Notes: generated from the sequence alone by a model not told the origin. Shown: positions 2 to 31,895, counted from the stretch's first letter. The stretch is 64,000 bases of DNA from an uncultured Thermoleophilia bacterium (GCA_963705085.1 CAVPIV010000004.1:181028-245027); one strand, 5' to 3'. Numbers and translations are program-made.

Positions 2-520
2 CTCAAGGGCCGGCTGGATGTGCTCGTCGACCCCGCGACGCTCGTCATCCCCGAGGTGCAGGAGCCCCTCGGCGACGACGAGCTCCGCGCCTTCGTCGCC
101 GAGCACCCCCTCAAGGTCGTGGCCGCGACCGTCGGCAACGACGAGCACTCCGTCGGCCTCTTCGAGGTCCTCGACATCAAGCACGGCGGCATCGAGACCT
201 GGGGCATCGAGCACGTCTACCTGGGCACCTCGGTCCCGGTCGAGAAGGTCCTGGACGCTGCCCTCGAGCACGCCGCCCAGGCGATCCTCATCAGCACGAT
301 CATCACCCACAACGAGATCCACCGCATCAACATGGAGAAGCTCGCCGACCTGGCCGTCGAGAAGGGCGTGCGCGACAAGCTCCTGCTCATCAGCGGCGGC
401 ACCCAGGTCACCGACGAGCTGGCCAGGGAGTGGGGCATGGACGCCGGCTTCGGCCGCGGCACCAAGGGGCGCGATGTGGCGTCGTTCATGGTGCGGGCGT
501 GGCGGGAACGAAACGGCTAG
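2..520 (+). CDS. oraE: D-ornithine 4,5-aminomutase E (beta) subunit, C-terminal cobalamin-binding domain (gene starts upstream of window)
   Basis: LKVVAATVGNDEHSVG (DxHxxG B12 motif), IKHGGIE, YLGTSVPVEK, GGTQVT and GFGRGTKG closely match clostridial OraE; frame is open from base 2. Confidence 0.9.
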   Translation, partial: LKGRLDVLVDPATLVIPEVQEPLGDDELRAFVAEHPLKVVAATVGNDEHSVGLFEVLDIKHGGIETWGIEHVYLGTSVPVEKVLDAALEHAAQAILISTIITHNEIHRINMEKLADLAVEKGVRDKLLLISGGTQVTDELAREWGMDAGFGRGTKGRDVASFMVRAWRERNG

Positions 521-623
521 AAACCACCATAACCGAGATCCGAGGACCACGAACAAGGGATGATGGCAGAGCGTGGCTGGATGGCTTTGCTCACCGCTGC
601 ACTTGCGCTTCAGTGGCTTCTGG

Positions 624-661
624 TGTTTCCCATACGCGAGGTGTTTCCCATGTGGGAAACA
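624..661. promoter_or_regulatory. Putative autoregulatory operator of the AbiEi-type antitoxin
   Basis: Perfect inverted repeat TGTTTCCCA-TG-TGGGAAACA (642-661) plus an extra half-site TGTTTCCCA (624-632) directly before the start codon. Confidence 0.6.
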
Positions 662-667
662 TAAGTC

Positions 668-1744
668 GTGGAGGAAACAGTGCAAGAGGTCGGACTTAAC
701 AGAGAGAGCCTTCAAGCGGCCCTGGAGCAGCTGTTCCCTCGCGGCGCCGTCGACGTCGGCCACTGCGGGGTGGCCGGCCGCTGGCGTTCTGACTGTGAGG
801 CGTCGGTAGGCCTCGGCGATCAGAGCCTCAGTCTCCTTGTCGAGTTCAAGCAGGTCGGCAGCGAGGCAAGGCTGAAAGAGGCTGCCGAGCTGATCCGCCG
901 GCGCCAGGACGAGTCTCCCAGCCGGCTCTTGATCCTCGCTTGCCCGTTCCTGAGCTCCTCTCGGCAGGAGCTCCTGCGTGAGAGCGGTGTGCCGTACTTC
1001 GATCTTGCCGGCAATGCCTGGATCGTCTCCGACGCCGTGCATGTCGACCGCCGCGGCTTCCCCAATCCTTTCTCAGAGCGGCGGCGAGCGCGAGATCCTT
1101 TCTCCGACAAGGCTTCGCTTGTGCTTCGCGCCCTGATTGCCCCGGGGCCAGGAAGAGGGGTGCGCAGCATCGCCGAGCAGGCAGACCTGAGCGCCGGCTA
1201 CGTCTCCAAGATCGTGCAGGAGCTCGAGGAGCGCGGCTACGTCGCCCGGCGCGAGGGAGGCCTCGCACTGCGGAACGGACAGGAGCTCCTGCGGGACTGG
1301 GTTCGCGCCTATCGCAGGCACTGGATCGAGAGAAGAGGCTACTTTCTGCCGGCGGCTCGTCCGCAGGCAGTCATGGATGCGATCCGCCAGGCCTCAATCA
1401 GCGTCGACTACGCTCTCTCCCTGCAGGCCGGGGCCAGTTTGGTCGCGCCCTACGCCGACTTCGATGTCGTCGACGTCTATGTTCATAGCATCGACGACGC
1501 GGTAGCACTTGCGGGCCAGCTCGAGGCTCGCGAGGTCGATCGAGGCGCCAACCTGCGCATCAGCGTGCCCTACTACCGCGTCTCCGCGTTCTTCGATAGA
1601 CAGGAGGCAGCTGGTCTGCCGGTCGTTTCGGACCTGCAGCTCTACCTCGACCTCTATGACTATCCCTTGCGGGGTCGCGAACAGGCTGAGCAGATCCTCG
1701 AGCGCCGCCTGATGCCAAAGCTCGAGGCAGCTGAGCACAAGTAG
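668..1744 (+). CDS. Type IV TA AbiEi-family antitoxin / HTH transcriptional regulator
   Basis: Central HTH (VRSIAEQADLSAGYVSKIVQELEERGYV); C-terminal VVSDLQLYLDLYDYPLRGREQAE typical of AbiEi_2 proteins; coupled to a downstream NTase. Confidence 0.7.
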   Translation: MEETVQEVGLNRESLQAALEQLFPRGAVDVGHCGVAGRWRSDCEASVGLGDQSLSLLVEFKQVGSEARLKEAAELIRRRQDESPSRLLILACPFLSSSRQELLRESGVPYFDLAGNAWIVSDAVHVDRRGFPNPFSERRRARDPFSDKASLVLRALIAPGPGRGVRSIAEQADLSAGYVSKIVQELEERGYVARREGGLALRNGQELLRDWVRAYRRHWIERRGYFLPAARPQAVMDAIRQASISVDYALSLQAGASLVAPYADFDVVDVYVHSIDDAVALAGQLEAREVDRGANLRISVPYYRVSAFFDRQEAAGLPVVSDLQLYLDLYDYPLRGREQAEQILERRLMPKLEAAEHK

Positions 1745-2575
1745 ATGTCTCTCGATCCAACACTGCTCGTGGGGCTGCGCGTCCTGCAGCCCTACCTCGA
1801 TGACATCGTCGTCGCCGGCGGCTGGGTGCCGTACCTCTACGCTGCGCACCAACCGCCATCGGATGAGGCGGTCGCGCTCAAGACGCGGGACCTCGACCTC
1901 GCCGTGCCTCGAGAGGTCCCCGAGCGAGAGAAGACGATCGACCAGCTGCTGGACGAGGCGGACTTCGCCTGCGAGTTCCGCTCGCGAGGGACTCCGCCGG
2001 TCACGGTCTATCTGGCGACGCATGCCGGTGACGAAGTGGAGATCGAGTTCATCACGACTGCGCAAGGTGCGGACCTGGGCGTGCACACCGTGCAAGGCGG
2101 CATGACCGCGCAGGAGCTTCGCTACGTCGACCTGTTGCTCGAGCACACCTGGCCCTTGCCGCTCGACGCCCTCAGCGCCGGGGAACTCGATGGGCGCATC
2201 TGGGTGCCGACACCGGCGGCCTTCGTCCTACAGAAAGCCCTTTCGCACACGTCGCGGACCGACGCGCTGAAGAAGGAGAAGGACCTCTACTACATCTTCT
2301 CTGTCATGGATGCGTTCCGCGGATGGCATCCCTGGGTTCGAGAGGAGCTGAAGGCGCTCGCCGCCGCCAGACGCCCTTGGTCCCGGCGCGCACTTCAGGA
2401 TCTTGAAGCTGCGTTTGAGACGCCTGGCGGTTCAGGTGCCGACGCGCTCTTGAACCAGCGGCCTGGCACGGCGTACTCGGGCCTCAACGACGAGCAGTTC
2501 CGCCAATACGCCTGGTCGGTGATGCACATGCTGCTCGAGATGATGAGGGAGGGTCAGGCCGCCGACGGCACGTAG
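1745..2575 (+). CDS. Nucleotidyltransferase-fold protein (GSU2403/AbiEii-like putative toxin)
   Basis: VVAGGW...TRDLDL (GG plus DxD, pol-beta NTase motifs), QKAL and KKEKDLYYI; starts 1 nt after the antitoxin stop. Confidence 0.7.
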   Translation: MSLDPTLLVGLRVLQPYLDDIVVAGGWVPYLYAAHQPPSDEAVALKTRDLDLAVPREVPEREKTIDQLLDEADFACEFRSRGTPPVTVYLATHAGDEVEIEFITTAQGADLGVHTVQGGMTAQELRYVDLLLEHTWPLPLDALSAGELDGRIWVPTPAAFVLQKALSHTSRTDALKKEKDLYYIFSVMDAFRGWHPWVREELKALAAARRPWSRRALQDLEAAFETPGGSGADALLNQRPGTAYSGLNDEQFRQYAWSVMHMLLEMMREGQAADGT

Positions 2576-2598
2576 CGCCGTGCCGATCTTCTTCTAGA

Positions 2599-3435
2599 CT
2601 AGATCCCGCGCCCGCGGACGTACTCGCTCACGTCCACGTTGAGCCGCAGGTCTTCGAGACGGAAGGTCGCCCACGGGCGCCCAGCGTCGATCCACGTCGC
2701 GCTGCCGACCGTGTTGGTGAGCACTCCGCCGAGCTCAGCCCATTCGTCGGCGTGGGTCAGCCACAGCGTCTTCTCGGCGCTCGCCGAGCCCTTGTAGCGC
2801 ATGGTCTCCGTCCAGGTGGGCAGGCCGCTCGCGGGATCGAAGCGCACAACGAAGCCCTGCTCCGTGTCCTTGAACGGCACCACCAGCAGGGCCGTCTCGG
2901 CGTCCAGCGGCTCCCAGCGCACACGCGGATCGGTCAGGAACAGCGCCGGGAACTGCCACGACTCGGCCCACATGCCCTGGTTCGCCGACCACTCCATCTT
3001 GGGGCCCGAGTCCGTGCCGACGATCGGGATCTCCGCCAGGCTCGCGCCGTCGATGTAGCGCTCGTTGATACGCAGGACGGGGATGCCGAACCAGCACACC
3101 TCGATGTAGTGACGGTAGTCCTGCCCGGCCACGTGCGTGAAGCGGTACCGGGCCGGCAGGTCCAGCGGCCCCGCCGGGCGAACGCGGGCGCGGCCGGTGA
3201 GGACGGCGCTGGTGACCACGGGTATCCGGTCCCCGTACACCGTGCGGTAGAAGCGCTCCACCGGGGCAGGCAGATCCGCGGGCAGGGCGATCGTCTCAAT
3301 CGAGGCGGGCTGCGCCTCCGGGTAGTCTGGGAAGGGGGAGGGCTCGATCTGGAATCCGAGCCAGCCGACGAACAGGACCAGCGCCAGCACGCCCGCCGTC
3401 CAGGCGATGATCGTCATAGCCTTCCTCGCTCTCAT
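2599..3435 (-). CDS. DUF6544-like membrane-anchored protein
   Basis: N-terminal TM helix, LPADLPAPVERFYRTVYG, ESWQFPA and VRWEPLD; divergent from TetR. Confidence 0.6.
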   Translation of the reverse strand: MRARKAMTIIAWTAGVLALVLFVGWLGFQIEPSPFPDYPEAQPASIETIALPADLPAPVERFYRTVYGDRIPVVTSAVLTGRARVRPAGPLDLPARYRFTHVAGQDYRHYIEVCWFGIPVLRINERYIDGASLAEIPIVGTDSGPKMEWSANQGMWAESWQFPALFLTDPRVRWEPLDAETALLVVPFKDTEQGFVVRFDPASGLPTWTETMRYKGSASAEKTLWLTHADEWAELGGVLTNTVGSATWIDAGRPWATFRLEDLRLNVDVSEYVRGRGI

Positions 3436-3485
3436 GAGAACCATCCCTCCATCCACCCGGGTGGGGCTTGACGCCCGACCCTTGC

Positions 3486-3513
3486 TGCATCTAGTATGCA
3501 AGCAAGTACTTGC
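3486..3513. promoter_or_regulatory. Palindromic TetR operator region in divergent promoter
   Basis: TGCAT-N5-ATGCA (3486-3500) and perfect 12-bp palindrome GCAAGTACTTGC (3502-3513). Confidence 0.5.
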
Positions 3514-3543
3514 AAACGTCAAGTCAAGGCAAGCGAGGACCGG

Positions 3544-4161
3544 ATGTCGGCAGTGGAGAGGGAGACGAGGCAGTCCATCCTGGACGCCGCGGCCGAGCTC
3601 ATGGGCGAGCGGGGCTACCGGGCGACAACCACGCGAGCGATCGCCGAGCGCGCCGGCGTGAACGAAGTCACGATCTTCAGGCAGTTCGGCAACAAGAAGG
3701 GGCTCCTGCAGGCGCTCGTGGAGGATTGGGCCACGACCATGGCGGGGTTCGCCGTCGCCGAGATCTCAGCCCCCGAAGACACACGCGGCACCCTCGAGTC
3801 GCTCGCGGCGATGGAGGTCCGGCAGGCGCGGCAGTTCGGTGCGCCGGCCATGCGGCTCGCGTTCGACGCCCGGTCGGAGCCCGACGTGATGGAGGTCATG
3901 GGCGCCGGACCTGCCGGCAACCTCGAGGGGCTCGCCGACTACCTGGCCGCGCGGCAGGAGGCCGGCGACCTGCGCACGGACCTCGACCCGCGCGTCATGG
4001 CCGAGGCGTTCTTCGCCCTCACCTCGACGTTCGTGATGTCGCGGCTGCTGCTCGGCGAGCGCCTGGCCGGCGTCGGGCCGCAGATGGACGAGGCCGCGCG
4101 CCAGATGCTCGAGGTCTACCTGACGGGCGTGGGGCTGAAGAGAGAGCGCGAAGCGACGTAG
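3544..4161 (+). CDS. TetR/AcrR family regulator
   Basis: ILDAAAELMGERGYRATTTRAIAERAGVNEVTIFRQFGNK TetR HTH. Confidence 0.9.
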   Translation: MSAVERETRQSILDAAAELMGERGYRATTTRAIAERAGVNEVTIFRQFGNKKGLLQALVEDWATTMAGFAVAEISAPEDTRGTLESLAAMEVRQARQFGAPAMRLAFDARSEPDVMEVMGAGPAGNLEGLADYLAARQEAGDLRTDLDPRVMAEAFFALTSTFVMSRLLLGERLAGVGPQMDEAARQMLEVYLTGVGLKREREAT

Positions 4162-4167
4162 GCTTCG

Positions 4168-4239
4168 ACGATGCCGTCTAACGCCTGGTCGGCCCTCAAC
4201 GACGCCGCCGAGGTCGCCGAGCAGATCACCTCGGCGGTG
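4168..4239 (+). pseudogene. 72-nt sliver of a SIMPL-domain gene
   Basis: TMPSNAWSALNDAAEVAEQITSAV aligns without gaps to 8362-8433 (TMSADAKSALDDAAKIAGQITSAV), about 80% nt identity by manual count. Confidence 0.75.
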
Positions 4240-4277
4240 CGGCCCGGATCCGTCCAGTTCGAGGCCTGACGTCACCC

Positions 4278-4306
4278 TTGCCAAGCGTCACGTGACACGT
4301 TACACT
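4278..4306 (+). promoter_or_regulatory. higBA promoter with palindromic operator
   Basis: TTGCCA-17-TACACT with palindrome GTCACGTGAC (4287-4296) in the spacer. Confidence 0.65.
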
Positions 4307-4313
4307 GCCGCCT

Positions 4314-4595
4314 GTGATCAAGACGTTCGCGGACAAGCGCACGCAGGAGCTCTACCTCACGGGTAGGGCCAAGCGCTTTCCGCCCGACGTTGCTCGCCGC
4401 GCCGCTCGCAAACTCGAGTACATCGACTTGGCGAGTCGGCTCGACGATCTCAAGGTTCCGCCGGGGAACCGGCTGCATGCGCTCGAGCGGGAGCGCGAGG
4501 GACAACACGCGATCTCGGTGAACGACCAGTGGCGCATCTGTTTCCGCTTCCAGGACGGTGACGCCTATGACGTCGAGATCACTGACTATCACTAG
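4314..4595 (+). CDS. higB: HigB (RelE/ParE family) toxin
   Basis: MIKTFADK, PPGNRLHAL, GQHAISVNDQWRICFRF and VEITDYH. Confidence 0.92.
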   Translation: MIKTFADKRTQELYLTGRAKRFPPDVARRAARKLEYIDLASRLDDLKVPPGNRLHALEREREGQHAISVNDQWRICFRFQDGDAYDVEITDYH

Positions 4596-4609
4596 AGGTG
4601 AGGTGCACC

Positions 4610-4924
4610 ATGAGCATTGCCAACAGGAGCGAGATGCGACGCCGGCCGACCCATCCAGGAGAGATGTTGCGCGAGGACTTCCTGGTCGACTACGGGCTCA
4701 CCGTCGCGACGCTGGCCGAGGCGCTCGGCGTCTCTCGCCAGACAGTGAACGAGCTGTTGCGCGAGCGGCGTGCCGTGAGTCCGGAGATGGCCCTGCGGTT
4801 GTCGCGCCTCTTCGGCAACTCGCCGGAGTTCTGGCTGAACGCGCAGCGCGCCGTGGATCTCTGGGACGCGGCGCGATCGATCAAGGCAGAGGTCGACAGG
4901 ATCAAGCCACTCAGTGCCGCCTAG
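4610..4924 (+). CDS. higA: HigA antitoxin (XRE HTH)
   Basis: PTHPGEMLREDFL, ALRLSRLFGNSPEFWLNAQ; downstream of higB. Confidence 0.92.
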   Translation: MSIANRSEMRRRPTHPGEMLREDFLVDYGLTVATLAEALGVSRQTVNELLRERRAVSPEMALRLSRLFGNSPEFWLNAQRAVDLWDAARSIKAEVDRIKPLSAA

Positions 4925-4928
4925 GAGC

Positions 4929-5393
4929 CTAGTACTCGCCCTTGATCACGAAGAACGAGCCCCGGATCGTCCCCGCCAGCTTGGACTTCTGCGTGGCGAA
5001 CTTGAACTTGCCCGCGAGCTCCGCGGGCACCTCCATCCCTTCTGAGAGCTTGAAGCCGACCGCGCGCTTCTTGGGATCGTCGATCGCGTACACGAAGTTG
5101 ACCTCGAGGCCATCCTCGTAAAACACGTGGGCGGCCCTGATGCCGTCCACTTCGAACTGTGACGTCTCCAGGGGCCTGGCGGCGAACTCGATGCCGCGCT
5201 CCTCTTTGAGGATGCGGTTCACGTAGGCGAGCGTGTCCTGGCTCTCGTCTGCCGGCACGACTGTGAACTGATGCTTGTACTTGTTCATGTAGTAGCGCGC
5301 CTCGTTGGCACGCAGACCGGCGAGCGCGGCTGCCACGGGCGAAGACTCCAGCCCCGCCGTCGACACGTTCACGAAATCGACCACCTCAGGCAT
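4929..5393 (-). CDS. Conserved hypothetical protein
   Basis: 154-aa ORF with RBS (GAAGGAGG); ALAGLRANEARYY...KRAVGFKLSEG...KSKLAGTIRGSFFVIKGEY recalled as a conserved family of unknown function. Confidence 0.65.
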   Translation of the reverse strand: MPEVVDFVNVSTAGLESSPVAAALAGLRANEARYYMNKYKHQFTVVPADESQDTLAYVNRILKEERGIEFAARPLETSQFEVDGIRAAHVFYEDGLEVNFVYAIDDPKKRAVGFKLSEGMEVPAELAGKFKFATQKSKLAGTIRGSFFVIKGEY

Positions 5394-5510
5394 CGTCGTG
5401 CCTCCTTCGTCCGGTGAGCGGAGGTGCTTGGCGTCAAGATACCCGCCTGGCCGCCTGGCGGCATCACGACGGCCGCGCCGAACAGGCGGGTGGCGCCGGA
5501 GCGCGTCCGG

Positions 5511-5729
5511 GCGGTGCTCAGCGTCACGATCCTCACTCACAACGAGATCTACCGCACCGAGATGGAGAGGCCCGCCGACCCGGGTACGGCGATGGGCGTG
5601 CGCGACGATCTCCTGCTTGACAGTGGTGGCACCCAGGTGACCAACGGGCCGGCGAGGGCGTGGGGGATAGACTCCGGCTTCGGTCGCGGCGCCGAGGGCC
5701 GCGACGGGGCGTCGTTCCTCGTGCGCGCG
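5511..5729 (+). pseudogene. Decayed copy of the oraE 3' end
   Basis: Gap-free alignment to 281-499, about 79% nt identity (46/219 mismatches, manual); several L-to-P changes; no start codon or rest of gene. Confidence 0.88.
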
Positions 5730-5975
5730 CTGCGCCTCAGGCCCGGTGCCGAAGGCACCCCGTGCCATGATGGGTGCAGCGGTGGAGAGACCCAGCAAGC
5801 GCATCAGCAGAGCGCCACAAAGGGTAGACTGACCCGGAAGCGGATGCGCGCGCTCATCCGTACGATGTTATGTTCGCAGCAAGGCTTGCAGGTTCTGCGC
5901 CGAGCGTTGGACGGCTATTGTCACAGGCTGAATGGGATTCATCATTTGATCTGGTTGTTCTTGAGAGCGTGAACC

Positions 5976-6398
5976 ATGCAGAACTTACTTAGAATGTTTG
6001 AGCGCGTTGTGATCGGTTCTCTCGTTTTTATGATGATGATTGTTGTTCTTCTTGCGACGTTGGAATTGGGATGGTTAATAGTAATTGACGTTATAACCGA
6101 TCCAATTGTACTGCTTGAAATTGATGAACTACTTGATATATTCGGATTCTTCTTGCTGGTTCTTATTGGTATTGAGTTACTTGATACAATAAGGTCATAT
6201 TTGTCTCAACATATAGTACACGTTGAGATTGTGATTGAGGTGGCAATGATTGCGGTTGCCCGTAAAGTGATTATCTTGGACGTCAAAGATTTATCTGGTG
6301 TGACGTTGGTTGGGATAGCTGCGATTATCGTTGCTCTGACGGCGGCGTATTTCACTCTTAGACGTTACCGTGGCTGGCGTTCCGACAATCAAGCGTGA
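5976..6398 (+). CDS. Phosphate-starvation-inducible PsiE-family membrane protein, AT-rich
   Basis: LLVLIGIELLDTI and VAMIAVARKVIILD; four TM segments; GC 35-43% in sampled lines. Confidence 0.8.
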   Translation: MQNLLRMFERVVIGSLVFMMMIVVLLATLELGWLIVIDVITDPIVLLEIDELLDIFGFFLLVLIGIELLDTIRSYLSQHIVHVEIVIEVAMIAVARKVIILDVKDLSGVTLVGIAAIIVALTAAYFTLRRYRGWRSDNQA

Positions 6399-6501
6399 TC
6401 ATGAGCGATGTTCGGCGATGCCGAGACCGCGAGGGTCTTCGAAAGGCGCTTCTCTACACGCCCGCCGAACGAGCGTGGGGGCCAGTTGCAGCCCGCGTGC
6501 G

Positions 6502-6645
6502 AACGACCAGTGGCGTAACTGCTTCGTATGGCTAGACTCTCTCCCGTCCACCCCGGCGAGGTGCTGCTCGAGGAGTTACTCAAGCCCCTCGGCCTGAGCC
6601 AGAACCGCCTCGCGCTGGCGATCGGCGTCCATCCTCGCCGCATCA
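6502..6645 (+). pseudogene. Remnant of a second higBA locus
   Basis: [10 protein letters not shown] (HigB C-terminus) fused to [39 protein letters not shown] (HigA N-terminus), then similarity is lost. Confidence 0.8.
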
Positions 6646-6770
6646 GAGACATAGGAGCACACCGTACGCGCCGAAAGGCCGATCCATCCTTCAAGGCTCC
6701 GCGCAGGTTATGCGCACGACGTCAGATCGCCGAAGGAACCCAGCCCAGGAGCCTGCGACTCACGGACGCG

Positions 6771-6848
6771 AAGATCTCGACCACGGGAGTGATCATCGCC
6801 ACCTACGAGCCCGCCGGGCCGCTCGAGGTCGGCACGATCGGCGCCTAG
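6771..6848 (+). pseudogene. C-terminal sliver resembling a dihydrofolate-reductase/RibD-C family gene
   Basis: [16 protein letters not shown]...stop resembles the conserved last strand of that family; no upstream part present. Confidence 0.4.
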
Positions 6849-6887: not shown

Positions 6888-8030
6888 TCACGGAGCCACG
6901 ATCCGGTACACGGCGCCTTCCAGTGACGTCATGTAGAGCTCACCGCGGCCGTCTTCTCCGAAGGACGAGATGCGCTCGATCCGACGGTCTGCTCCCTCGA
7001 GCAGTCGTGGCTCGCCATCCGGCCCTCGCATCGCCCAGACGTGACCGCTGACGAAATCCGCGTAGAGGTAGTGCCCCCGGAGGGCGGGGATGGCGGTTCC
7101 GCGGTAGACGTACCCGCCCGTGATCGATTCGCCCATATCGTGCCCGTACTCGGCAACGGGCCACACGAGCTCGTCGCGGTCGAGCCGCCGCGCTGTGGCG
7201 GCGTCGTACTCTTGGGAGCCCTCGTAGCCGCGCCAGCCGAGGTTCGCTCCCGGCGGCGTTTCGGGCGGGAGGTAGTTCACCTCTTCGCGCTCGTTCTGGC
7301 CGACGTCGGCGATCCACAGCCCCCCTTCCTTGCGGTCGAAGGAGAAGCGCCAGGGGTTCCGCACTCCTACGGCGTAGATCTCCGGATCGGCTCCGCCGGC
7401 CACATTGAGACGCAGGATCTTCCCAAGCAGACTGCCCGGGTTCTGCGCTCGCCCCTCCGGGTCGCCGGCGCCGCCACCGTCTCCCATGCCCACGTACAGG
7501 AGGCCGTCTGGGCCGAACTGCAACTGTCCGCCGTTGTGATTCTGGTACGGCTGGGGCACAGAGAGGAGATCGACGCGGCTACTCACGTCGGCACGGTCCG
7601 GGTCGTCATCGCGGACTGAGAACTCCGACACCTTCGTCGTCCCCTCCTCGTCGGTGAAGTTGACGTAGAACCTGCCCGAGCGCGGGAAGTCCGGATCGAA
7701 GACGAGCGAAAGCAGCCCCTGCTCGGAGCCACTTGACACGGAATCCGAGAGGTCGAGGAATGGCTCGGCGAGCACGTCGTCCTTCACGACGCGAATCAGG
7801 CCGCCCTTCTCGACGACGAAGAGACGGGACGTGTCGCCGGGCGGCGCCGTGACGTACAGGGGCTCTGAGAAGGCGCCCGGGATGCGCTCGAGGGCGACGA
7901 CGGGTGCAGAAGAGGAGGGGGAGGGTGGGGAGGACGACGCCTTCCCAGGCGGTTCCGCGGCGCCGCCGCAGCTTGCCGACGCGAGCACGGCAGCAACGAG
8001 TATCGCCACTATCAACCAGCGGAGCCGCAT
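6888..8030 (-). CDS. PQQ-dependent sugar (glucose/sorbosone) dehydrogenase family lipoprotein
   Basis: Signal peptide with LASASC lipobox; EQGLLSLVFDPDF, NHNGGQLQFGPDG, GVRNPWRFSFD and SITGGYVYRG. Confidence 0.88.
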   Translation of the reverse strand: MRLRWLIVAILVAAVLASASCGGAAEPPGKASSSPPSPSSSAPVVALERIPGAFSEPLYVTAPPGDTSRLFVVEKGGLIRVVKDDVLAEPFLDLSDSVSSGSEQGLLSLVFDPDFPRSGRFYVNFTDEEGTTKVSEFSVRDDDPDRADVSSRVDLLSVPQPYQNHNGGQLQFGPDGLLYVGMGDGGGAGDPEGRAQNPGSLLGKILRLNVAGGADPEIYAVGVRNPWRFSFDRKEGGLWIADVGQNEREEVNYLPPETPPGANLGWRGYEGSQEYDAATARRLDRDELVWPVAEYGHDMGESITGGYVYRGTAIPALRGHYLYADFVSGHVWAMRGPDGEPRLLEGADRRIERISSFGEDGRGELYMTSLEGAVYRIVAP

Positions 8031-8172
8031 GATGGCACGGTTCCGCATGCTGCGGCAGCGGTAAACGTCGCGCGCATCCCCGTGAACTAATGTCTTCACA
8101 CGTGCGTCCTCACAGGTACTGACACGGCGACGCAGCCGTCTCCGGCGCGCGCACTTCTCAAGGGGGATCGCG

Positions 8173-8901
8173 ATGGCTTTCGGGAACAGGTACGCAACTG
8201 CCGCACTGCTCGCGGCTCTCTCGCTGGCGCTCATTGCGCTTGCCGGCTGCTCGAGTTCCGGCGCCACCTCGGAAGGCGCCCCCGCCAACACGGTGACCGC
8301 CTCCGGCAGCGGCACCGCGCAGGCCGCGCCGGACACCGCCGAGATGTCCTTCGGCGTGACCACGATGTCGGCCGACGCCAAGTCGGCGCTCGACGACGCC
8401 GCCAAGATCGCTGGGCAGATCACCTCGGCCGTCAAGAAGCAGGGCATCGCCGACGAGGACATCCAGACGCGCGACGTCAGCGTGTACCCGCAGACGACCG
8501 ACCAGAACGGCAAGCAGGTCATCACCGGCTACCAGGCGTCGCTCAGCGTGCAGGTCAAGGTGCGCGACATCGCCAAGCTCGGCGAGGTCATCTCGGCTGC
8601 CAACGACGCCGGCGCCAACACCATCAGCGGGCCCTCGTTCACGATCGCCGATCCGGCGCCCGTCCGCGCCGAGGCCATCGACGAGGCTGTGGCGGACGCC
8701 CGCACGAGCGCCGAGGCGATGGCGCAAGGCCGCCGGCAAGAGCGTCGGCGAGGTGCTGAGCCTGAGCTCGAGCGACGTCGGTATGGTCGGCCCGATGTAC
8801 AGGTCAGCCGACATCGCCGAGGCGGCCAAGGCGCCGTGCCCATCGAGCCGGGTCAGCTCGACATCACCGCGACTGTGGTCGTGGTCTTCGAGCTCAAGTA
8901 G
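8173..8901 (+). CDS. SIMPL (DUF541) lipoprotein with two compensating frameshifts near 8725 and 8833
   Basis: LAGC lipobox, GYQASLSVQV, AGANTISGPSF and PIEPGQLDITATVVVVFELK; the expected AKAAGKSVGEVLSLS segment is in another frame. Confidence 0.8.
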   Translation: MAFGNRYATAALLAALSLALIALAGCSSSGATSEGAPANTVTASGSGTAQAAPDTAEMSFGVTTMSADAKSALDDAAKIAGQITSAVKKQGIADEDIQTRDVSVYPQTTDQNGKQVITGYQASLSVQVKVRDIAKLGEVISAANDAGANTISGPSFTIADPAPVRAEAIDEAVADARTSAEAMAQGRRQERRRGAEPELERRRYGRPDVQVSRHRRGGQGAVPIEPGQLDITATVVVVFELK

Positions 8902-10588: not shown

Positions 10589-10798
10589 ATGGAGACTGTG
10601 ACCGTCTCGCCCAAGTATCAGGTGGTCATCCCGAAGTCGATCCGCGAGCGGCTGCGGCTGGTCCCGGGCCAGAAGGTGCAGGCCATCGTGATCGGCGACC
10701 ACATCGAGCTCCTGCCCGTGCGTCCCGCCTGCGATCTGCGTGGCATCTTCCGTGGTCTCGACATCAGCGGTGGGCGTGAGGAGCACGACCGTCTGTGA
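10589..10798 (+). CDS. vapB: AbrB/MazE/SpoVT-family antitoxin (VapB)
   Basis: VTVSPKYQVVIPKSIRERLRLVPG swapped-hairpin motif; overlaps the PIN gene start. Confidence 0.88.
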   Translation: METVTVSPKYQVVIPKSIRERLRLVPGQKVQAIVIGDHIELLPVRPACDLRGIFRGLDISGGREEHDRL

Positions 10799-11067
10799 AC
10801 GTCGTCGATTCCTCAGCCTGGCTGGAGTACTTCGGTGACGGCCCCAATGCGGGCGACTTCGCACCGGCGATCGAGGATCCCGATCGTCTCGCGGTGCCCA
10901 GCCTCACCCTGGTCGAGGTCTTCAAGCGCAGCTCCCAGCTCAAGGACGAGGCCACAGCGCTGGAGGCCGTCGGCGTCATGCTCCAAGGTCGTGTGGTGGA
11001 GCTCTCGGCAAGCCTGGCCATCGACGCCGCCAGGCTCTCGCTTGAGACCGGTCTCGCCATGGCCGAC
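10795..11067 (+). pseudogene. vapC: VapC PIN toxin, truncated after ...GLAMAD
   Basis: MNVVDSSAWLEYF, LVEVFKR and LAMAD, then the frame runs into antisense ABC sequence; the last ~35 PIN residues are missing. Confidence 0.85.
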
Positions 11068-11181
11068 TTAGAGCCAGTAGATGAACACGAAGAGCGGCGC
11101 GAAGACGAGCGTGAGAACGAGCATGAGGAGGTCGCGACGCAGCTCGCGGAGGCTCTTCCCGAAGACGTGGATCAGCCTCAT
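11068..11181 (-). pseudogene. 37-codon stub of an ABC transporter permease
   Basis: MRLIHVFGKSLRELRRDLLMLVLTLVFAPLFVFIYWL-stop; start overlaps the ATPase stop (ATGA). Confidence 0.8.
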
Positions 11182-12045
11182 GAGCGGAGCCGCCTGCCGG
11201 TGAGGCTGATGAAGACGTCCTCGACCGTCGCCCGGTCCTCCAGAAAGGCGACTGCCTCGCGAGCCAGTCCCGGCTCGGCGCCGAGCTCGATCTCGACGAC
11301 GTCGCCCTCGCCGACACTGCTCTTGAGGGCGTCCGGCGTGTCCAGCACGAGCAGTCTGCCGTGGTCGATGATGGCGACCCGGTCCGCTACCCGGTCAGCC
11401 TCGTCCATGTTGTGCGTCGTGAGGATGATCGTCTTGCTGCGGGCCAGCGAGCGGATGTAGTCGCGCAGCCATGATCCGGCTCTGCGGGTCAAGACCCGCC
11501 TCGGGCTCGTCGAGCACGACGATCTCGGGATCGTGGACCAGGGCGAGGGCGAAATTGAGCCTTCTCTTCATGCCGCCAGAGAGCGCCGTCGCCAGCGCTC
11601 CCGACTTGGTCTCGAGGCCCATGTCGATCAGGAGCCGGCGGCCGCGACGCCGCGCTTCTGCTTTCGTGAGGTCGTACATCTCACCCATGAACTCGAGCTG
11701 CTCGAGGCAGGTGAGCTTCTCCCAGAGGACGACCTCCTGGGGGCAGACGCCGACGCGGCGGCGGACAGCGGCGTTGCCACCGGTGATGGGCTTGCCGCCG
11801 ACGAGCACCGTGCCGGAGTCCGGCCGGAGCAGCCCGCACAGCATCTTGATGCTCGTCGTCTTGCCGGCGCCGTTGGGACCCAGGAAGCCGAGGACCTCGC
11901 CTTCGTGGACATCGAGGGACAGGCCGTCGACCGCGAGCACCTCACCGAAGCGCTTGGTCAGAGCTTGGGCTCTGAGGACGACGGCCGGCGCGGTCCCGGT
12001 CACGTCCGGCCGGCCAGGCGCCGCTGACGGAGCGTCAACCGGCAT
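11178..12045 (-). pseudogene. ABC transporter ATP-binding protein, frameshifted near 11470
   Basis: GPNGAGKT, LSGGMKRR and VLDEPEAGLDPQSR in one frame; DYIRSLARSKTIILTTHNMDEAD continues in another. Confidence 0.88.
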
Positions 12046-13070: not shown

Positions 13071-13909
13071 CAGTAATCTCGCTCGGCAGTCTCTTCTTGC
13101 GGTTCAGGTGGCGCATTTCGCTGACGCTCACGCTGGTAGTCGTCGAGTCATTGCTGGAGGTGCTGTATCCGCTGCTCATCGGCTTCGCCATCAACGATCT
13201 GCTGGCCGGGCGCTATGACGGGCTCATTCACCTGGGTATGCTGGGCCTCGCCTCCGTGCTGATCGGCAGCGCCCGACGCTACTACGATACACGCATCTAT
13301 TCCGGCATTTACCGGCAGGTGGCCGTGGAGCTCGTAGAACGGGAGCAGGCGGCGGGCGCCAGCGTATCGCGGACGTCAGCCCACACGAACCTCCTCACCG
13401 AGTTCGTAGATTTCCTCGAAGACACAATGCCGGAGCTGATCGGCGCGCTGGTGGCGGTCGTTGGCATCCTCGCTGTCACCGCGGGGCTCTCGCTGCCGGT
13501 GTTCCTTGGCTGTCTCGCACTGTTCCTGCTGGTATTCCTGGTGTACACGATCACGGCCGGACGCAACTACCGGCTGAACGCGGGCTACAACAATCAGTTC
13601 GAAGAGGCGGTCGACGCCATCGCCTCGAGGAGGAGGGACCGGCTGACGAACCACTTCCATCGCCTCATGCAGTGGAACGTGCGCCTCTCCGATCTCGAAA
13701 CGCTGAACTACGCCGTGTTCTGGATCGGCGCAGTGGCGCTGCTGCTGTTCACGCCGTACAGCGCGGTCAGCGCCGGCGTGCTCGAATACGGGCTCGTGTT
13801 CTCGCTGCTGCTTTACGTCTTCGAGTTCATCGACTGGCTGTCGGACCTGCCGCTACACATACAACAGGCCATCCGGCTGCGGGAGATCTCGAAGCGCCTG
13901 ACCGGCTAG
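13067..13909 (+). CDS. ABC transporter six-transmembrane-domain protein (ABC_membrane_3-like), no ATPase domain
   Basis: LYPLLIGFAINDLL, RRYYDTRIYSGIY and EFVDFLEDTMPELI. Confidence 0.75.
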   Translation: MTVISLGSLFLRFRWRISLTLTLVVVESLLEVLYPLLIGFAINDLLAGRYDGLIHLGMLGLASVLIGSARRYYDTRIYSGIYRQVAVELVEREQAAGASVSRTSAHTNLLTEFVDFLEDTMPELIGALVAVVGILAVTAGLSLPVFLGCLALFLLVFLVYTITAGRNYRLNAGYNNQFEEAVDAIASRRRDRLTNHFHRLMQWNVRLSDLETLNYAVFWIGAVALLLFTPYSAVSAGVLEYGLVFSLLLYVFEFIDWLSDLPLHIQQAIRLREISKRLTG

Positions 13910-13984
13910 CGGAGGTCCATTGCTCTGGCATTCATCATCAGGCCCATCGCAGCAGCAGTCGCAGGATGAGGCCATACACGACAT

Positions 13985-14040
13985 CGAACCAAGCGTTTCA
14001 AACGACGCTTGACAGCGCGCCTGAACCAGTCGCTAGCTGT
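13985..14040 (+). repeat. Degenerate integron attC-like hairpin
   Basis: ATCGAAC-5-GTTTCAAA-cgacgcttgacagcgcg-CCTGAAC-5-GCTAGCT; size and box spacing are attC-like but the R boxes pair only 4/7. Confidence 0.3.
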
Positions 14041-14050
14041 CGGGAGAGTC

Positions 14051-14192
14051 GGCTTCCCTGACTACGAGGACGCCGTCATCACGGAGGCCGCGCGACGGAG
14101 TTGGGGCGGCGGCGATCGTCACGCGCGACGCCAAAGGCTTTGCGCGCTCCAATGCCCCCATCTTCAGTCCACCAGAGCTCCTCGCGGCCCTG
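14051..14192 (+). pseudogene. PIN-domain toxin C-terminal remnant (frameshifted)
   Basis: [16 protein letters not shown] followed by [28 protein letters not shown] in another frame. Confidence 0.7.
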
Positions 14193-14271
14193 TGGGCAGG
14201 CTCGCAGTAGGTTCGACGTGGCCCGCGTTGGATTGCGCGCTGGGCGCGGGCTGAACACAGCGGATGCCCGC

Positions 14272-14760
14272 CTACGCTCGCCCCTTGACCAGCTCTTTCG
14301 CCGCTTTGCCGGTCATGTGCTCGACCGCGATCTCGACCACGCACGTTCGCTTCAGCTGGCCCTCGATCTCGTTGTCGGCGGCGTCGAGGTAGTCCGGCGA
14401 GTACTTCCGGGCGAGGCAGCGGAGCCCGTGCCGCTTCTCGTCGTCGTCCGTGAGGACGCGCGCCCTGCCGAAGACGACGGCGCTGCGAAAGTGCGTCGTG
14501 AAGGTGCTCTGCTGGACGTCGTCCGCGGCGACGACGCAGAACGAGACCTTCTCGTTGCGCTCGATGCCGTCGAGCTTGTGGCCGGTCTGCGCGCAGTGAA
14601 AGAAGATCCTGCCGTCGTCGTAGGCGAAGCTCAAGGGGACGGCGTAGGGGTAGCCGTCGTCGCCCTGCACCGCGAGGACCCCCGAGGTGCAGGTCTGCAG
14701 CATGGCGATCGTCTCCGCCGCGGAGAGCAGCTGCCCCTTGCGTCTCATCGCTCTGAACAT
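14272..14760 (-). CDS. Pyridoxamine 5'-phosphate oxidase-like (NimA/5-nitroimidazole reductase-like) protein
   Basis: [39 protein letters not shown] and [12 protein letters not shown]. Confidence 0.8.
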
Positions 14761-16421: not shown

Positions 16422-17090
16422 CTACGTTGTCTCGCGCGCCCGCTCCAGCCCGTCGAGGATCAGCCCCAGACCGAACTCGAAGTCGGCGTTCTCGTCCCAG
16501 CCGACCGTCAGCATGTGGTCGGTGATGACCTCGGTGAGGTACGGGAACTCATCGGCGGGGATCGCGGCGAGGAAGGCCTCGGCCATCTCCCGGGCATCGC
16601 CTCCGCCGCCGGCCATGTTGAGCTGCTGGCGGCCGAAGCCGTAGACGTAGCTGTCGAGCGCCGAGAACGCGCGCAGGGCAAGTTCGACGGAGAAGCCCGC
16701 CCGGCGCAGCGTGCCGATCACCCATTCGAAGTAGAGGAGCCTGGCGGGTCCGCTGCTCTCGCGCGAGTCGATCAGGGCGCTCGCCCAGGGATGACGGGCG
16801 AAGACCTGGCGGGCCGAGACCGCCCTTCTGCGCATCGCCTCTCGCCAGTCGACCTCGCCAAAGGGCAGGTCGATCTCGGCGACGACGAGATCAAGCATGC
16901 CGTCGAGCACGTCGTCCTTGTTGCTCACGTGGTTGTAGAGCGACATCGCCTCGACGCCGAGCCGGCGGCCGAGCTCGCGCATCGAGAGCGCGTCGATGCC
17001 GTGCTCGTCGGCGAGCTCCAGCGCGGCGGTCAGCACCCGCTCTCGAGTGAGTGGAGCGCGTCCGGGCTTCGCTGCTGATCCTCCGTCCAC
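16422..17090 (-). CDS. TetR regulator with TetR_C-type C-terminal domain
   Basis: LTRERVLTAALELADEHGIDALSMRELGRRLGVEAMSLYNHV and FEFGLGLILDGL. Confidence 0.92.
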   Translation of the reverse strand: MDGGSAAKPGRAPLTRERVLTAALELADEHGIDALSMRELGRRLGVEAMSLYNHVSNKDDVLDGMLDLVVAEIDLPFGEVDWREAMRRRAVSARQVFARHPWASALIDSRESSGPARLLYFEWVIGTLRRAGFSVELALRAFSALDSYVYGFGRQQLNMAGGGGDAREMAEAFLAAIPADEFPYLTEVITDHMLTVGWDENADFEFGLGLILDGLERARETT

Positions 17091-17147
17091 TGGCCTCCTC
17101 CGTTGACGCGGGTTCCGCGGGTGGCGGCCGCGAGCACGATCTGGGGC

Positions 17148-17189
17148 TTGACATACTTACGCCGTAAGTAGATACTTACACCGTAAGTG
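17148..17189. promoter_or_regulatory. Promoter with tandem TetR operators CTTAC-N3-GTAAG
   Basis: TTGACA (17148-53), TACTTACGCCGTAAGTA (17154-70) and TACTTACACCGTAAGTG (17173-89). Confidence 0.8.
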
Positions 17190-17252
17190 GAGTGTATCGG
17201 GTTTGCGGCGCGCCGGCAAGGGCCACGCGTCGCCGGGCGGATTGGAGGAGCG

Positions 17253-17993
17253 ATGAAGACGATCGATCATGTCACTCTGCGTCTGCGGAAGATGGGGGGC
17301 TGGGCGGCGCTGTACCTGGCCTGCGCGTACCTGCTGGCGATGCCGTTCTTCCTGGTGGTCGTCAACTACCCCAGCGTGACGGACCCCGCCGAGAAGGTCG
17401 CGCTGCTCGCGGCCAACCAGGGCAGCATCCACGCCATGTACCTCGTCACCTATGTGGTCTTCGGCGTTGCCCTCGCCGTCCTCGCGCTTGCGCTCTACGA
17501 GCGGCTGAAGCCCGCGGCGCCGGTCATGATGCAGGTGGCAACTGCCGTGGGTCTGATGTGGGCGTTCGTCCTGATCGCGAGCGGCATGGTCTTCAACGCC
17601 GGCATGGCCGCCGCGGTCGCCCTCTACCCGGCGAGCCCAGACCAGGCGGTAGCGACCTGGCAGGCGATCGAGCCGGTAGCGCAAGGACTCGGCGGCTCCG
17701 GCGGCGAGCTCCTCGGCGGTCTTTGGGTCCTGCTCGTCAGCATCGCCGGCCTCCGCGCGGCCCAGCTTTCCAGGCCGCTCAGCTGGCTGGGCGTGGCGAT
17801 CGGTCTCGTGGGCATCCTCTCGGTGATTCCGCCGCTGAAGGACGCGGCCTACGCCTTCGGGCTGCTGCAGATCGCGTGGTTCGCTGGGCTTGGGATCACC
17901 ATGCTCCGCGCCACGGAGCGGCGCGAGCCGCTGCCCGCACCCAGCCTCGAATCCGCGCAGGCTCAGCGCACGGTGGTCCAGCAAGCGCAGTAG
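17253..17993 (+). CDS. DUF4386-family membrane protein
   Basis: About six TM helices; GELLGGLWVLLVS and QIAWFAGLG; divergent from TetR. Confidence 0.7.
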   Translation: MKTIDHVTLRLRKMGGWAALYLACAYLLAMPFFLVVVNYPSVTDPAEKVALLAANQGSIHAMYLVTYVVFGVALAVLALALYERLKPAAPVMMQVATAVGLMWAFVLIASGMVFNAGMAAAVALYPASPDQAVATWQAIEPVAQGLGGSGGELLGGLWVLLVSIAGLRAAQLSRPLSWLGVAIGLVGILSVIPPLKDAAYAFGLLQIAWFAGLGITMLRATERREPLPAPSLESAQAQRTVVQQAQ

Positions 17994-18187
17994 TCGGCGC
18001 CACCCGAAAGGCGAGCTGCCAGCCGTCCTGCAGCGTCGTCGGGGTCCCGGGGATCGCCGGCGTGACCTGAGTTGAGCCTGGCCGAAAGGCCACAGCCCAG
18101 CCAAGTCCGCCGGCGGTCCCCGCCGCATCGGGCGCAGCCGAGCAAGGGGCCGGATTCCGCGGACCATGTGTGGACTACAATCGATCC

Positions 18188-20894: not shown

Positions 20895-20946
20895 TCTCGC
20901 GTCCCTTCGAGCTTCCGCACCCAGCCGCGGCCCGCGGCGAGTCTGC

Positions 20947-21030
20947 GATTAGTCCGCCGCGCGCGGGGCCCTGACGTGCCGCGCGGCGCTCAATAGGCCT
21001 ACGCCGATTAGTCCCACCGAATAGTCCGTT
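20947..21030 (+). promoter_or_regulatory. Repeated boxes (G/C)AWTAGKCC upstream of the small gene
   Basis: GATTAGTCC 20947, CAATAGGCC 20991, GATTAGTCC 21006 and GAATAGTCC 21019. Confidence 0.5.
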
Positions 21031-21113
21031 CGGACGATGACGGCGCCTCCGTTCGCCCCCATGCTTGTCGAGTAGGCGCCGCAGGCGTCTCAGGCGGACG
21101 GTGGAAGGGCAAC

Positions 21114-21350
21114 GTGGGCAGCTACCAGATCAGGATCGAGGGCCATCTTGGACCAGGGTGGGCCAACTGGTTTGAGGGGATGCGGATCACCCTGGAGGAC
21201 AACGGCGACACGCTCCTGACCGGCGCGGTAGTCGACCAGGCCGCGCTCCACGGGCTCCTGAAAAAGGTGCGCGATCTCGGCGTGCCGCTCGTCTCCGTCA
21301 CTCGCCTTGACCCCGGCCCGGCGCACCAACCGACGAACAAAGGAGATTGA
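21114..21350 (+). CDS. Conserved 78-aa protein associated with MalT-like regulators
   Basis: YQIRIEGHLG.W.WFEG...GDTLLTG.VVDQAALHGLL..VRDLGVPLVSV; paralog at 35133-35388. Confidence 0.8.
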   Translation: MGSYQIRIEGHLGPGWANWFEGMRITLEDNGDTLLTGAVVDQAALHGLLKKVRDLGVPLVSVTRLDPGPAHQPTNKGD

Positions 21351-21351
21351 G

Positions 21352-22077
21352 ATGTTCTCGTACAGAAGAACCGCGATCATCGTGGGTGTGCTGTTCATCA
21401 TCGGAGACATCGCAGGCGTGCTGAGCTACGTCGTGACAGGAGGTCTGCTGGATGGCCCGGATGCCCTTACCAAGATCGCCGCAAGCCAGAACCAACTCGT
21501 GCTGGGAGCGCTCCTCGTGCTGGTCATGGGCCTCGCGCTGGCGATGGTCCCGGTCGTGATGTTCCCGGTCTTCAAGAAGTACAACGAAGTCCTGGCGCTT
21601 GGATGTGTCGTCTTCAGGGGCGCGCTCGAGACCGTCGGCTACATGGCGTCTGCAGGCACGTGGCTGCTGCTCGTCGAGCTCAGCCGGGAGCATGCGGAGG
21701 CGGCGTCTGCCGGCGCTCCGCACTTCCAGACCCTCAGCGCGCTCCTCGCGGGTCCGACTGCCGCGTACCTCATCTCCATCGCCTTCAGCCTCGGCTCCCT
21801 GATGTTCTACTACCTCTTCTACCAGTCGAGACTCATCCCCCGATGGCTGTCGGTCTGGGGTCTTGCCGGCGCCGTCCTGTACCTGGCTGCACCGTTGCTG
21901 CAGATGTTCGGCCACGGTTTCGGGATCCTGATGGCGCCCCTGGCGGTGGCGGAGATCGTCCTGGCGGTATGGCTGATCGCCAAAGGGTTCAATCGGTCGG
22001 CACTGGCTGCCGGCGCCGGGAGCCAGGCGTCCGCCCGGCGCTGGCCGGAAGTCGCCTCAGCGGGTATCACGAGGTAG
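21352..22077 (+). CDS. DUF4386-family membrane protein
   Basis: RRTAIIVGVLF, YQSRLIPRWLSVWG and EIVLAVWLIAKGFN. Confidence 0.85.
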   Translation: MFSYRRTAIIVGVLFIIGDIAGVLSYVVTGGLLDGPDALTKIAASQNQLVLGALLVLVMGLALAMVPVVMFPVFKKYNEVLALGCVVFRGALETVGYMASAGTWLLLVELSREHAEAASAGAPHFQTLSALLAGPTAAYLISIAFSLGSLMFYYLFYQSRLIPRWLSVWGLAGAVLYLAAPLLQMFGHGFGILMAPLAVAEIVLAVWLIAKGFNRSALAAGAGSQASARRWPEVASAGITR

Positions 22078-22171
22078 TTGCTTCACGATCGACCAAGCGG
22101 TGTTCGCGCGAGTGCGCGAAGGCAAGATCTGTGTGCCTGCCGGCTGACATCCGCCGAGACCGCGGCGCATG

Positions 22172-31637: not shown

Positions 31638-31769
31638 GCGTCGGCTGTTGGAGAAGGAGTGCTGGGCATGCTCCAGTCTCCCCGGCCGCCGTCGATCGAA
31701 TCGATGCTGACGGCCCTGCTCAACGAGATCGCAGCTCTCCCGCACGGTGTCGTCCTCGTGCTCGACGAC
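31638..31769 (+). pseudogene. Sliver of a third MalT-like regulator gene
   Basis: AVGEGVLGMLQSPRPPSIESMLTALLNEIAALPHGVVLVLDD aligns gap-free to 18470-18601, about 86% nt identity (manual). Confidence 0.88.
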
Positions 31770-31895
31770 AAGGGGCCGACCTGCCGCGAGGACGCAGGTC
31801 GCCCCTCCGGCGTCGCCGCGGTGCGGGATCGCCGACCGGTCGGACACACCGCCGGACGGCGACCTCGCTGCGGGCGAAAGGCTCAGACGTCGGCT

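Follow-up and report, generated by a model that had tools for sequence, protein, structure and literature searches.

In a 64,000-nucleotide (nt) stretch from an uncultured Thermoleophilia bacterium (GCA_963705085.1, CAVPIV010000004.1:181028-245027; hereafter the window), the 3' end of oraE, which encodes the beta subunit of D-ornithine 4,5-aminomutase, is present twice (pathway naming follows PMC8803604). The window opens within oraE at about codon 716. One copy of the repeat is part of the working gene (copy A, 274-504) and the other stands alone, at a spacing of 5230 nt (copy B, 5504-5734). Copy B is a gene fragment, not a gene. Comparison with related loci suggests that it is probably the scar of a homology-anchored, one-sided illegitimate recombination ("C-terminal displacement") and not of site-specific integration. 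A scar at an accessory-gene hot spot is an ordinary, already known kind of feature, and the value of copy B is that of a marker: it points to a recombination hot spot that, lying between oraE and its MutL-family partner, splits the ornithine-fermentation operon of uncultured Actinomycetota from sediment and soil.

A second, decayed oraE end

Repeat search and alignment gave two direct, ungapped copies of 231 nt with 78% identity, which form one repeat family with two members. A first-pass annotation of this DNA had described a gap-free, same-orientation repeat of ~79%, and that description holds. On the side of copy A, the NCBIfam OraE equivalog NF040743 is matched at profile positions 568-729 of 730 (E values are given in Table 1) and the gene ends in a stop codon at 518-520. 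This oraE end is 95.5% identical at the nt level to that of L001 and 96.1% identical to those of L083 and L169 (L numbers denote the fetched related loci). The translation of copy B matches positions 653-727 of the same profile with 61.8 bits against a cut-off of 800; with partial profile cover and neither start nor stop, it falls short of a full-length OraE. Besides its 5' part, it is missing the stop and the 4-5 codons before it. Its blastn alignment to the closest orthologue, that of L001, has E=3.6e-51. A tblastn search of the 64 kb with full-length OraE returned the A and B pieces and no third one, and no further oraE or mutL fragments were found elsewhere in the window. A protein search with the OraE end gave short partial proteins only, with no close relatives beyond L001.

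Independent Illumina metagenome contigs, from short-read assemblies of several freshwater and sediment samples, cross both borders of copy B with 0-3 differences (X2, 5459-5658; X1, 5482-5770; X3, 5720-5926). Thus, copy B is not an assembly artefact. No joint formed by deletion between A and B was found in Logan contigs; the joints listed there look spurious, with only 20-32 nt on each side.

The differences between A and B are spread over the three codon positions as 14/18/19, compared with 9/7/26 or 11/8/25 between working orthologues at a similar distance. By the Nei-Gojobori method, the ratio of non-synonymous to synonymous divergence (dN/dS) is 0.74 for A and B and 0.10-0.29 for working pairs inside the clade, in agreement with the earlier description of B as a decayed copy. 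The three leucine-to-proline changes and the missing 5' part noted at first reading are indeed found in the translation of copy B, which also lacks a start and reads through the expected stop site. The even codon-position spread, the dN/dS of ~0.7 and the lack of a stop all argue that copy B is dead, and we regard it as a non-functional scar that has no present role and has decayed neutrally. The sequence after 5735 has no homology to any oraE-downstream sequence of the relatives, and comparison of the DNA downstream of B with that downstream of oraE in the window (A), L001, L002, L083 and L088 and with the DNA upstream of mutL gave nothing above the shuffle background.

Among 162 oraE ends, copy B is nearest to the clade formed by A, L001, L089, L002, L088 and L090 (77-79% nt identity), compared with at most 73% for all other orthologues (~155). 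An origin from distant oraE genes, which had been considered beforehand, is not what this placement indicates. In a bootstrap tree that took in the four clade members then fetched (A, L001, L002 and L088), B fell inside this group in 197 of 200 replicates and was sister to A alone in 11 of 200. Copy B has the ancestral state at 9 of the 9 sites that distinguish A from L001, carries none of A's own substitutions, and has ~5 derived states in common with each subclade. Its synonymous divergence from A (dS=0.33) is about equal to that between subclades (dS=0.285 for A and L002). The L083 tail has a 1-nt indel that makes it unreadable in codon register, and blastn values were used for it instead. 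By these measures copy B is a member of the resident clade without being a copy of A, and the orphan and the working end come from different alleles. About equal distance from both subclades is as expected for a resident allele.

Variable DNA between oraE and mutL

We fetched 161 relatives of the oraE end, of which 144 were informative and 17 were too short to judge. A MutL-family gene (PF13941), which may be the mutase's reactivase-like partner, by comparison with glutamate-mutase MutL, starts at most 250 nt after the oraE stop in 101 of the 144 informative loci. An insert of 0.5-8.9 kb precedes mutL in 25, and 18 have no mutL in the available 1.6-10 kb. Because the MutL-family gene of the window sits at 40748, the inserted DNA amounts to ~40 kb, not 5 kb, and the 5-kb block between the repeat copies makes up no more than the start of a 40-kb mosaic island (505-40747). 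The element of 5 kb proposed in the first-pass annotation therefore does not have the right scale: in relatives, the empty site has mutL behind oraE and lacks the whole 40 kb.

The inserts of relatives range from 0.5 kb to more than 10 kb and differ in content, often being defence-like or rich in toxin-antitoxin genes. Those of 23 relatives contain HepT/MNT pairs, a type I methylase, radical-SAM and transport genes and others, with no recurrent integrase among the 25 commonest of 92 families. The 14-kb island of L083 has the order oraE, Mrr, TspO, DUF6544, MMPL, TetR, GSDH, SIMPL, hyp154 (a gene for a hypothetical 154-residue protein), PNPOx, peptidase, mutL, and no second oraE piece was found in it. 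The core order is the same in L001, and L087 is colinear with the window (DUF6544-TetR ... hyp154 ... DUF1801-SfLAP-TetR-DUF4386-MalT). The oraE end of the window is 95-96% identical to those of L001 and L083 up to the last codons, and wholly different DNA follows there. Judging from these loci, the gap between oraE and mutL is a hot spot where an uncultured group of Actinomycetota gains, loses and swaps accessory genes, among them toxin-antitoxin pairs, restriction and other defence genes, transporters, regulators and integron cassettes.

The left end of the window is best described, on gene order and identity, as two versions of this island stacked head to tail with copy B as the seam. Unit 1 (274-5467) contains copy A, an AbiE-like pair, DUF6544-TetR, a SIMPL relic, HigBA and hyp154. 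Unit 2 (from 5504) contains copy B, a probable degenerate attC, psiE, a higBA relic, GSDH and SIMPL. The DUF6544-TetR module of unit 1 (2599-4161) is 90% identical to L087 over 1570 nt, with DUF6544 94% identical to L083, and the GSDH-SIMPL module of unit 2 (6888-8901) is 87-91% identical to L001 and L083 and is an island module of the L083/L001 type. The SIMPL relic is 82% identical to the window's SIMPL gene (8362-8432), 87% to that of L083 and 84.5% to that of L001; the 3' end of TetR (4079-4142) is kept as a relic upstream of SIMPL in L083 and L001, colinear with the window. The placement of the two relics points to an older gene order DUF6544-TetR-SIMPL-hyp154, and unit 1 is of the L087 type with SIMPL replaced by HigBA.

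The two flanks of the island are discordant. Between the window and L083, the oraE end is 96.1% identical and mutL 80.9%. In 50 genome pairs whose oraE ends are 96-98% identical, mutL identity averages 92.1%, and no pair lies below this one. Island genes at 88-94% identity to L083 against a mutL of 81% indicate that island modules moved between lineages, and the discordance between the oraE end and mutL indicates that the oraE end has a history other than that of the right flank, as expected if copy A was imported.

Partial duplicates of the flanking genes occur in two relatives. In L089 (1912-3645), an intact oraE is followed by one RelA_SpoT-domain gene, a 141-nt oraE fragment (codons 722-767) and then remnants of a DUF559 gene and of an IS3-type integrase core. 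The fragment is 88.8% identical to the window's oraE and 83.2% identical to that of L089 itself, the end of which is 94% identical to the window's, so that the orphan and the working end are different alleles here too. It begins at codon 722 and copy B at codon 808, and the preceding genes differ. A maximum chi-square test placed a recombination breakpoint between L089 and L001 ~700 nt upstream of the oraE stop, with divergence falling there from 9.5% to 4.6% (permutation p=0.0035); the test was not significant for six control pairs. In L001, 395 nt of the mutL 5' end occur a second time (95%) directly in front of the intact mutL, within a 606-nt tandem duplication of the peptidase 3' end plus these 395 nt (L001 contig; L170 reverse strand, 13626-14624). 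We read this duplicate as a mirror-image scar at the right island border. The island appears to be exchanged between lineages by flank-anchored recombination that occasionally leaves duplicates of oraE (window, L089) or mutL (L001).

A separate observation concerns the DNA directly behind oraE. A conserved non-coding stretch of ~250 nt lies 3' of the oraE stop in L001 (10520-10760) and L083 (68-290), and its first part only in L089 (1710-1800). It is missing behind both A and B in the window, and the genes that follow differ among L001, L083 and L089.

Possible origins of copy B

The DNA upstream of hyp154 that is native and common to L087 extends to ~5467, and oraE homology begins at 5504, or possibly at 5490 with a one-codon gap. 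Since 5468-5503 matches neither the hyp154 upstream DNA of L087 nor oraE, the joint is illegitimate: ~15-35 nt have no counterpart in either partner, and the joint falls 7-20 nt within an attC-type boundary. This cassette boundary, CCGAACAGGCGG (5478-5489), lies 84 nt upstream of hyp154 and aligns with a cassette boundary 88 nt upstream of hyp154 in L082 and L081. The longest identical runs within the repeats are 11-13 nt long and scattered, and none is at the left homology edge. The absence of an identical att (attachment site) core is a weak argument when taken alone, as decay could have erased the core.

In the course of events that we consider probable, donor DNA from an L001/L083-like relative, consisting of the oraE 3' part and unit 1, would have entered by homologous recombination anchored in oraE. 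For the other end, this course assumes an illegitimate join between a point within the hyp154 cassette's attC and the resident oraE, near codon 808. A would thereby have become the end of the gene, and the former end, B, would have been pushed 5.2 kb downstream and have decayed neutrally there. This reading draws on the repeat, the decay of B, the stacked units, the lack of mobility genes, the hot spot, the flank discordance and the scars in relatives. From these we infer the direction (A imported, B resident) and a single step of homology-facilitated illegitimate recombination.

Orphan 3' ends in rhs, contact-dependent inhibition (CDI) and type VI secretion system (T6SS) effector-immunity loci are attributed to this kind of recombination (PMC5361080, citing Jackson et al. 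2009; defined in PMC3240628). As in those loci, new cargo separates an intact gene in the window from an orphan of its own 3' end that is 5'-truncated and lies on the same strand; the proposed anchor is the conserved upstream part of the gene, the far end is illegitimate, breakpoints vary and the cargo is related to conflict or defence. Unlike them, the anchor is a housekeeping catabolic gene and not a polymorphic toxin with an exchanged variable tip, the new and old ends have the same function, the displaced end has no immunity-like partner and decays, and there is a single orphan and not a string.

Accessory-gene hot spots between core genes are exchanged by flanking homologous recombination. 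The oraE-mutL gap resembles these in having an empty site in many relatives, variable contents and island genes that are more similar than the core; it differs in lying inside a catabolic operon and in the partial duplicates left of both flanking genes.

Several points weigh against the displacement proposed above. The homologous crossover that it predicts upstream of codon 808 is not visible in the window, which starts at about codon 716, and is supported indirectly by the discordance between the oraE end and mutL. The reverse direction, in which B and unit 2 were imported with an illegitimate left joint and a homologous right one, fits the anatomy equally well, so that the direction is not proven, and accounts less well for the discordance between the oraE end and mutL. 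Within its clade, B groups with L002/L088 in 55-64% and with A/L001 in 28-34% of replicates, from 231 decayed bases. The arrangement of unit 1 is of the L087 type and its oraE end of the L001/L083 type, and the island has been rearranged repeatedly; for example, hyp154 is missing after the intact SIMPL. Neither the donor nor an ancestor with unit 2 only was found among the fetched relatives, and no single-event model covers every detail.

Integrons lie beside the same operon in relatives; their attC sites are structured, 60-140 nt long in general, and end in RYYYAAC and GTTRRRY. L082:1359-20111 (CAVOGK010000018.1, a contig shared with L023, from a metagenome-assembled genome labelled Thermoleophilia) has at least 25 attC sites of 84-90 nt among small genes, many of them toxin-antitoxin pairs, and hyp154 is there an integron cassette gene with attC sites on its flanks. 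A strong attC (80.8 bits) lies ~810 nt past the oraE stop in L083. In L130 (12085-13038; one attC) and L160 (12085-19528; five attC sites), a complete integron lies directly behind oraE-mutL, with cassettes that are co-oriented with the integrase and each end in attC. The integron integrase (IntI) of L130 scores 459 bits on TIGR02249 against a cut-off of 265, and that of L160 is frameshifted. Both loci come from metagenome contigs of ~66% G+C and encode an OraE with 71-72% identity to that of the window. According to RefSeq surveys (PMC9024848), Actinobacteria have few clusters of attC sites lacking an integrase (CALINs; PMC4889954, PMC9024848) and no complete integron. Integron arrays and a complete integron stand beside the ora operon in a phylum in which these surveys have no complete integron, a side finding that may outweigh the repeat in interest.

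In the window itself, a covariance model built from 17 L082 attC sites gave no significant attC, two short-motif scans were at about chance level, and no integron integrase was found by tblastn with L130 IntI or by Pfam on open reading frames (ORFs). A degenerate attC-like site is tentatively placed at 5792-5877 as probable: the 14-mer GATGCGCTTGCTGG (5792-5805) has one mismatch to the attC end motif and is the sole match in the 64 kb against 0.01 expected, and the full-length covariance alignment scores 11.5 bits, which is not significant window-wide. Its end motif follows B at a distance of 57 nt and is oriented as in true integrons, so that B stands between this probable degenerate attC and the truncated attC of the hyp154 cassette. 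The likeness to integrons and CALINs lies in the attC arrays and IntI that adjoin the ora operon of relatives, in hyp154 as a cassette gene and in a toxin-antitoxin content typical of sedentary arrays. Unlike them, the window has no IntI and no more attC sequence than one degenerate site and a half-site (5478-5489), and its island consists mostly of large genes on both strands that are not cassettes. We treat the integron as context and not as the maker of the repeat.

There are other possibilities for the origin of copy B. Genomic islands, integrative and conjugative elements and prophages integrate in the 3' end of tRNA or protein genes and carry a replacement end. The first-pass annotation had proposed such an event in oraE: a 5-kb site-specific element with its own integrase would have supplied A as the replacement and displaced B, and the integrase would later have been lost. 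The geometry it described stands, as an intact end, a block and a 5'-truncated end follow one another; oraE as the att target of an integrative element is not supported. Same-orientation gene-end repeats do bracket a toxin-antitoxin-rich block and leave the gene intact, as in islands of that kind, B is truncated 5', and site-specific recombination works near the operon (the attC of L083, the IntI and attC of L130 and L160). However, no integrase, transposase or recombinase was found in 500-40760 by Pfam on called genes and on every ORF of at least 110 codons (Phage_integrase, Resolvase, rve, DDE), neither intact nor as a remnant, in line with the original remark that no integrase remains. There is also no identical core. 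No other locus was found to carry the block as a unit, and in L083, L001 and L087 its genes are syntenic members of the island. No fetched relative has B directly behind oraE or lacks 505-5503 alone. Nor do oraE-tail repeats recur in relatives: among 43 relatives with DNA inserted after oraE, only L089 has one, at another breakpoint, and in most relatives the variable DNA starts past the stop with no duplication. Finally, A remains 95-96% identical to L001 and L083 to its last codons despite the different DNA that follows. A site-specific element is therefore improbable.

An intragenomic tandem duplication from oraE codon 808 to just upstream of hyp154, followed by differential loss (of GSDH and most of SIMPL from unit 1, of hyp154 from unit 2), would produce exactly the joint seen between hyp154-upstream and oraE-interior DNA and would place SIMPL sequence in each unit, one intact and one a relic at 82%; L001 offers a plain example in its 606-nt duplication at the mutL border. 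We nevertheless consider it unlikely, as B is not sister to A, dS(A,B) is of between-subclade size, the units differ in arrangement type and are each matched more closely in other genomes, the two HigBA pairs are unrelated paralogues, and the flank discordance would require an import anyway. Capture by an integron, with B moved as a cassette or trapped in one by IntI at a secondary site, would agree with the cassette boundary upstream of hyp154 that is matched in L082 and L081, with the attC end motif past B that is unique in the window, and with a B-attC orientation and near-adjacent spacing like that of gene and attC in the L160 integron. The attC-like site has only 11.5 bits, however, the left join is off the G/TT crossover point, the window has no IntI and the matching oraE position has no GTT like that of a secondary site, and we regard capture as very improbable. 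The same low standing applies to the wider proposal that the oraE-proximal island is what remains of a sedentary chromosomal integron and B a piece of a chromosomal gene becoming, or moved as, a cassette; if true, it would capture in nature the still unexplained birth of a cassette. Chance similarity or a chimeric assembly might be considered because the source has the look of a metagenome assembled from long reads, with indel errors such as the compensated frameshift in SIMPL. The E value to the orthologue and the short-read contigs across both borders refute this, and its likelihood is negligible. For annotation, the displacement reading carries a caution: a gene-tail repeat around toxin-antitoxin genes need not mean an integrase-borne element.

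Other genes of the island

The features of the window discussed here are listed in Table 1. The cargo named in the first-pass annotation (AbiEi and nucleotidyltransferase, TetR and DUF6544, HigBA and a hypothetical gene) was recovered by Pfam and NCBIfam.

Table 1. Positions of features in the window, with the basis of each assignment
Feature	Position	Strand	Basis
oraE 3' end, D-ornithine 4,5-aminomutase beta subunit, B12-binding domain, working gene	2-520	+	NF040743 (E=9e-76), PF02310
Repeat copy A, part of working oraE	274-504	+	Repeat search, alignment
AbiEi_2-like winged helix-turn-helix protein	668-1744	+	PF09952, PF12802
NTP_transf_8 nucleotidyltransferase	1745-2575	+	PF12281
DUF6544	2599-3444	-	Pfam
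TetR, divergent to DUF6544	3496-4161	+	Pfam
SIMPL relic, 71-nt internal gene fragment	4168-4238	+	Sequence alignment
HigB, of intact toxin-antitoxin pair	4314-4595	+	PF05015
HigA, of intact toxin-antitoxin pair	4598-4924	+	TIGR02607
hyp154, 154-residue protein	4929-5393	-	Homology only
Junction zone before B	5394-5503	.	Alignments with L087, L082, L081
Repeat copy B, dead oraE fragment, codons ~808-884, cut at both ends	5504-5735	+	NF040743 (E=3e-17)
Degenerate attC-like site (probable, tentative)	5792-5877	-	14-mer end motif, covariance model
psiE	5976-6398	+	PF06146 (E=7e-29)
Decayed second higB/higA pair, frameshifted, abutting psiE	6402-6848	+	Translations, alignment
GSDH	6888-8096	-	Pfam
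SIMPL	8173-8901	+	Pfam
Papain-type peptidase with lectin domain, right-hand island end	38459-40654	+	Pfam
MutL-family gene, far side of island	40748-42142	+	PF13941 (E=7e-132)

The AbiEi_2-like and NTP_transf_8 genes likely form a type IV toxin-antitoxin-like pair, as judged from their domains, and no close relative of this pair was found in 170 fetched loci. A near-perfect palindrome (624-679; GTGTTTCCCATGTGGGAAACA), found by inverted-repeat search directly 5' of the AbiEi-like gene, is likely an operator for autoregulation. The hyp154 protein is very conserved and has at least 8000 homologues, the best 120 of which are 81-92% identical except for one at 67%. Some of the sources are named (Coriobacteriia, Clostridia, Niallia) and some records say "phage tail protein". 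It had no match in Pfam, NCBIfam, PHROG or PDB sequences, and the exact window sequence is not on record.

In unit 2, psiE has 41% G+C inside a 66% G+C genome (5860-6400), a composition that clearly marks it as a recent foreign insert. The higB/higA relic was considered as a duplicate of the intact pair at 4314-4924 and this was rejected, as only 25 nt are alike and the two are different paralogues. Relative to L001 and L083, the SIMPL gene of the window has a compensated double frameshift at 8722-8851. In contigs from other samples, one nt is deleted at 8724/8725 and one is inserted at 8832, and these changes would bring the frame back; the frameshifts are probably indel errors of long-read assembly, or else a real variant.

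The 40 kb as a whole contain three toxin-antitoxin pairs and a decayed fourth, TetR regulators, DUF4386, two MalT-like regulators, transporters, a giant surface protein and the peptidase, which also precedes mutL in L083, L001 and L090. An Rfam scan of 1-42500 returned no family. A MazE-type antitoxin and a PIN-domain protein form a pair at 10589-11460. Paralogous island modules that are 74-80% identical lie within 16441-22757 and 31626-38217: a direct pair of TetR paralogues (16441-16977 and 22221-22757), inverted MalT-like regulator paralogues (18201-18999 and 37434-38217) and an inverted pair of a small ORF with DUF4386 (21122-22014 and 34406-35341). The second MalT gene is split into two ORFs (35722-36783 and 36608-38482), and a 144-nt MalT fragment lies at 31626-31769.

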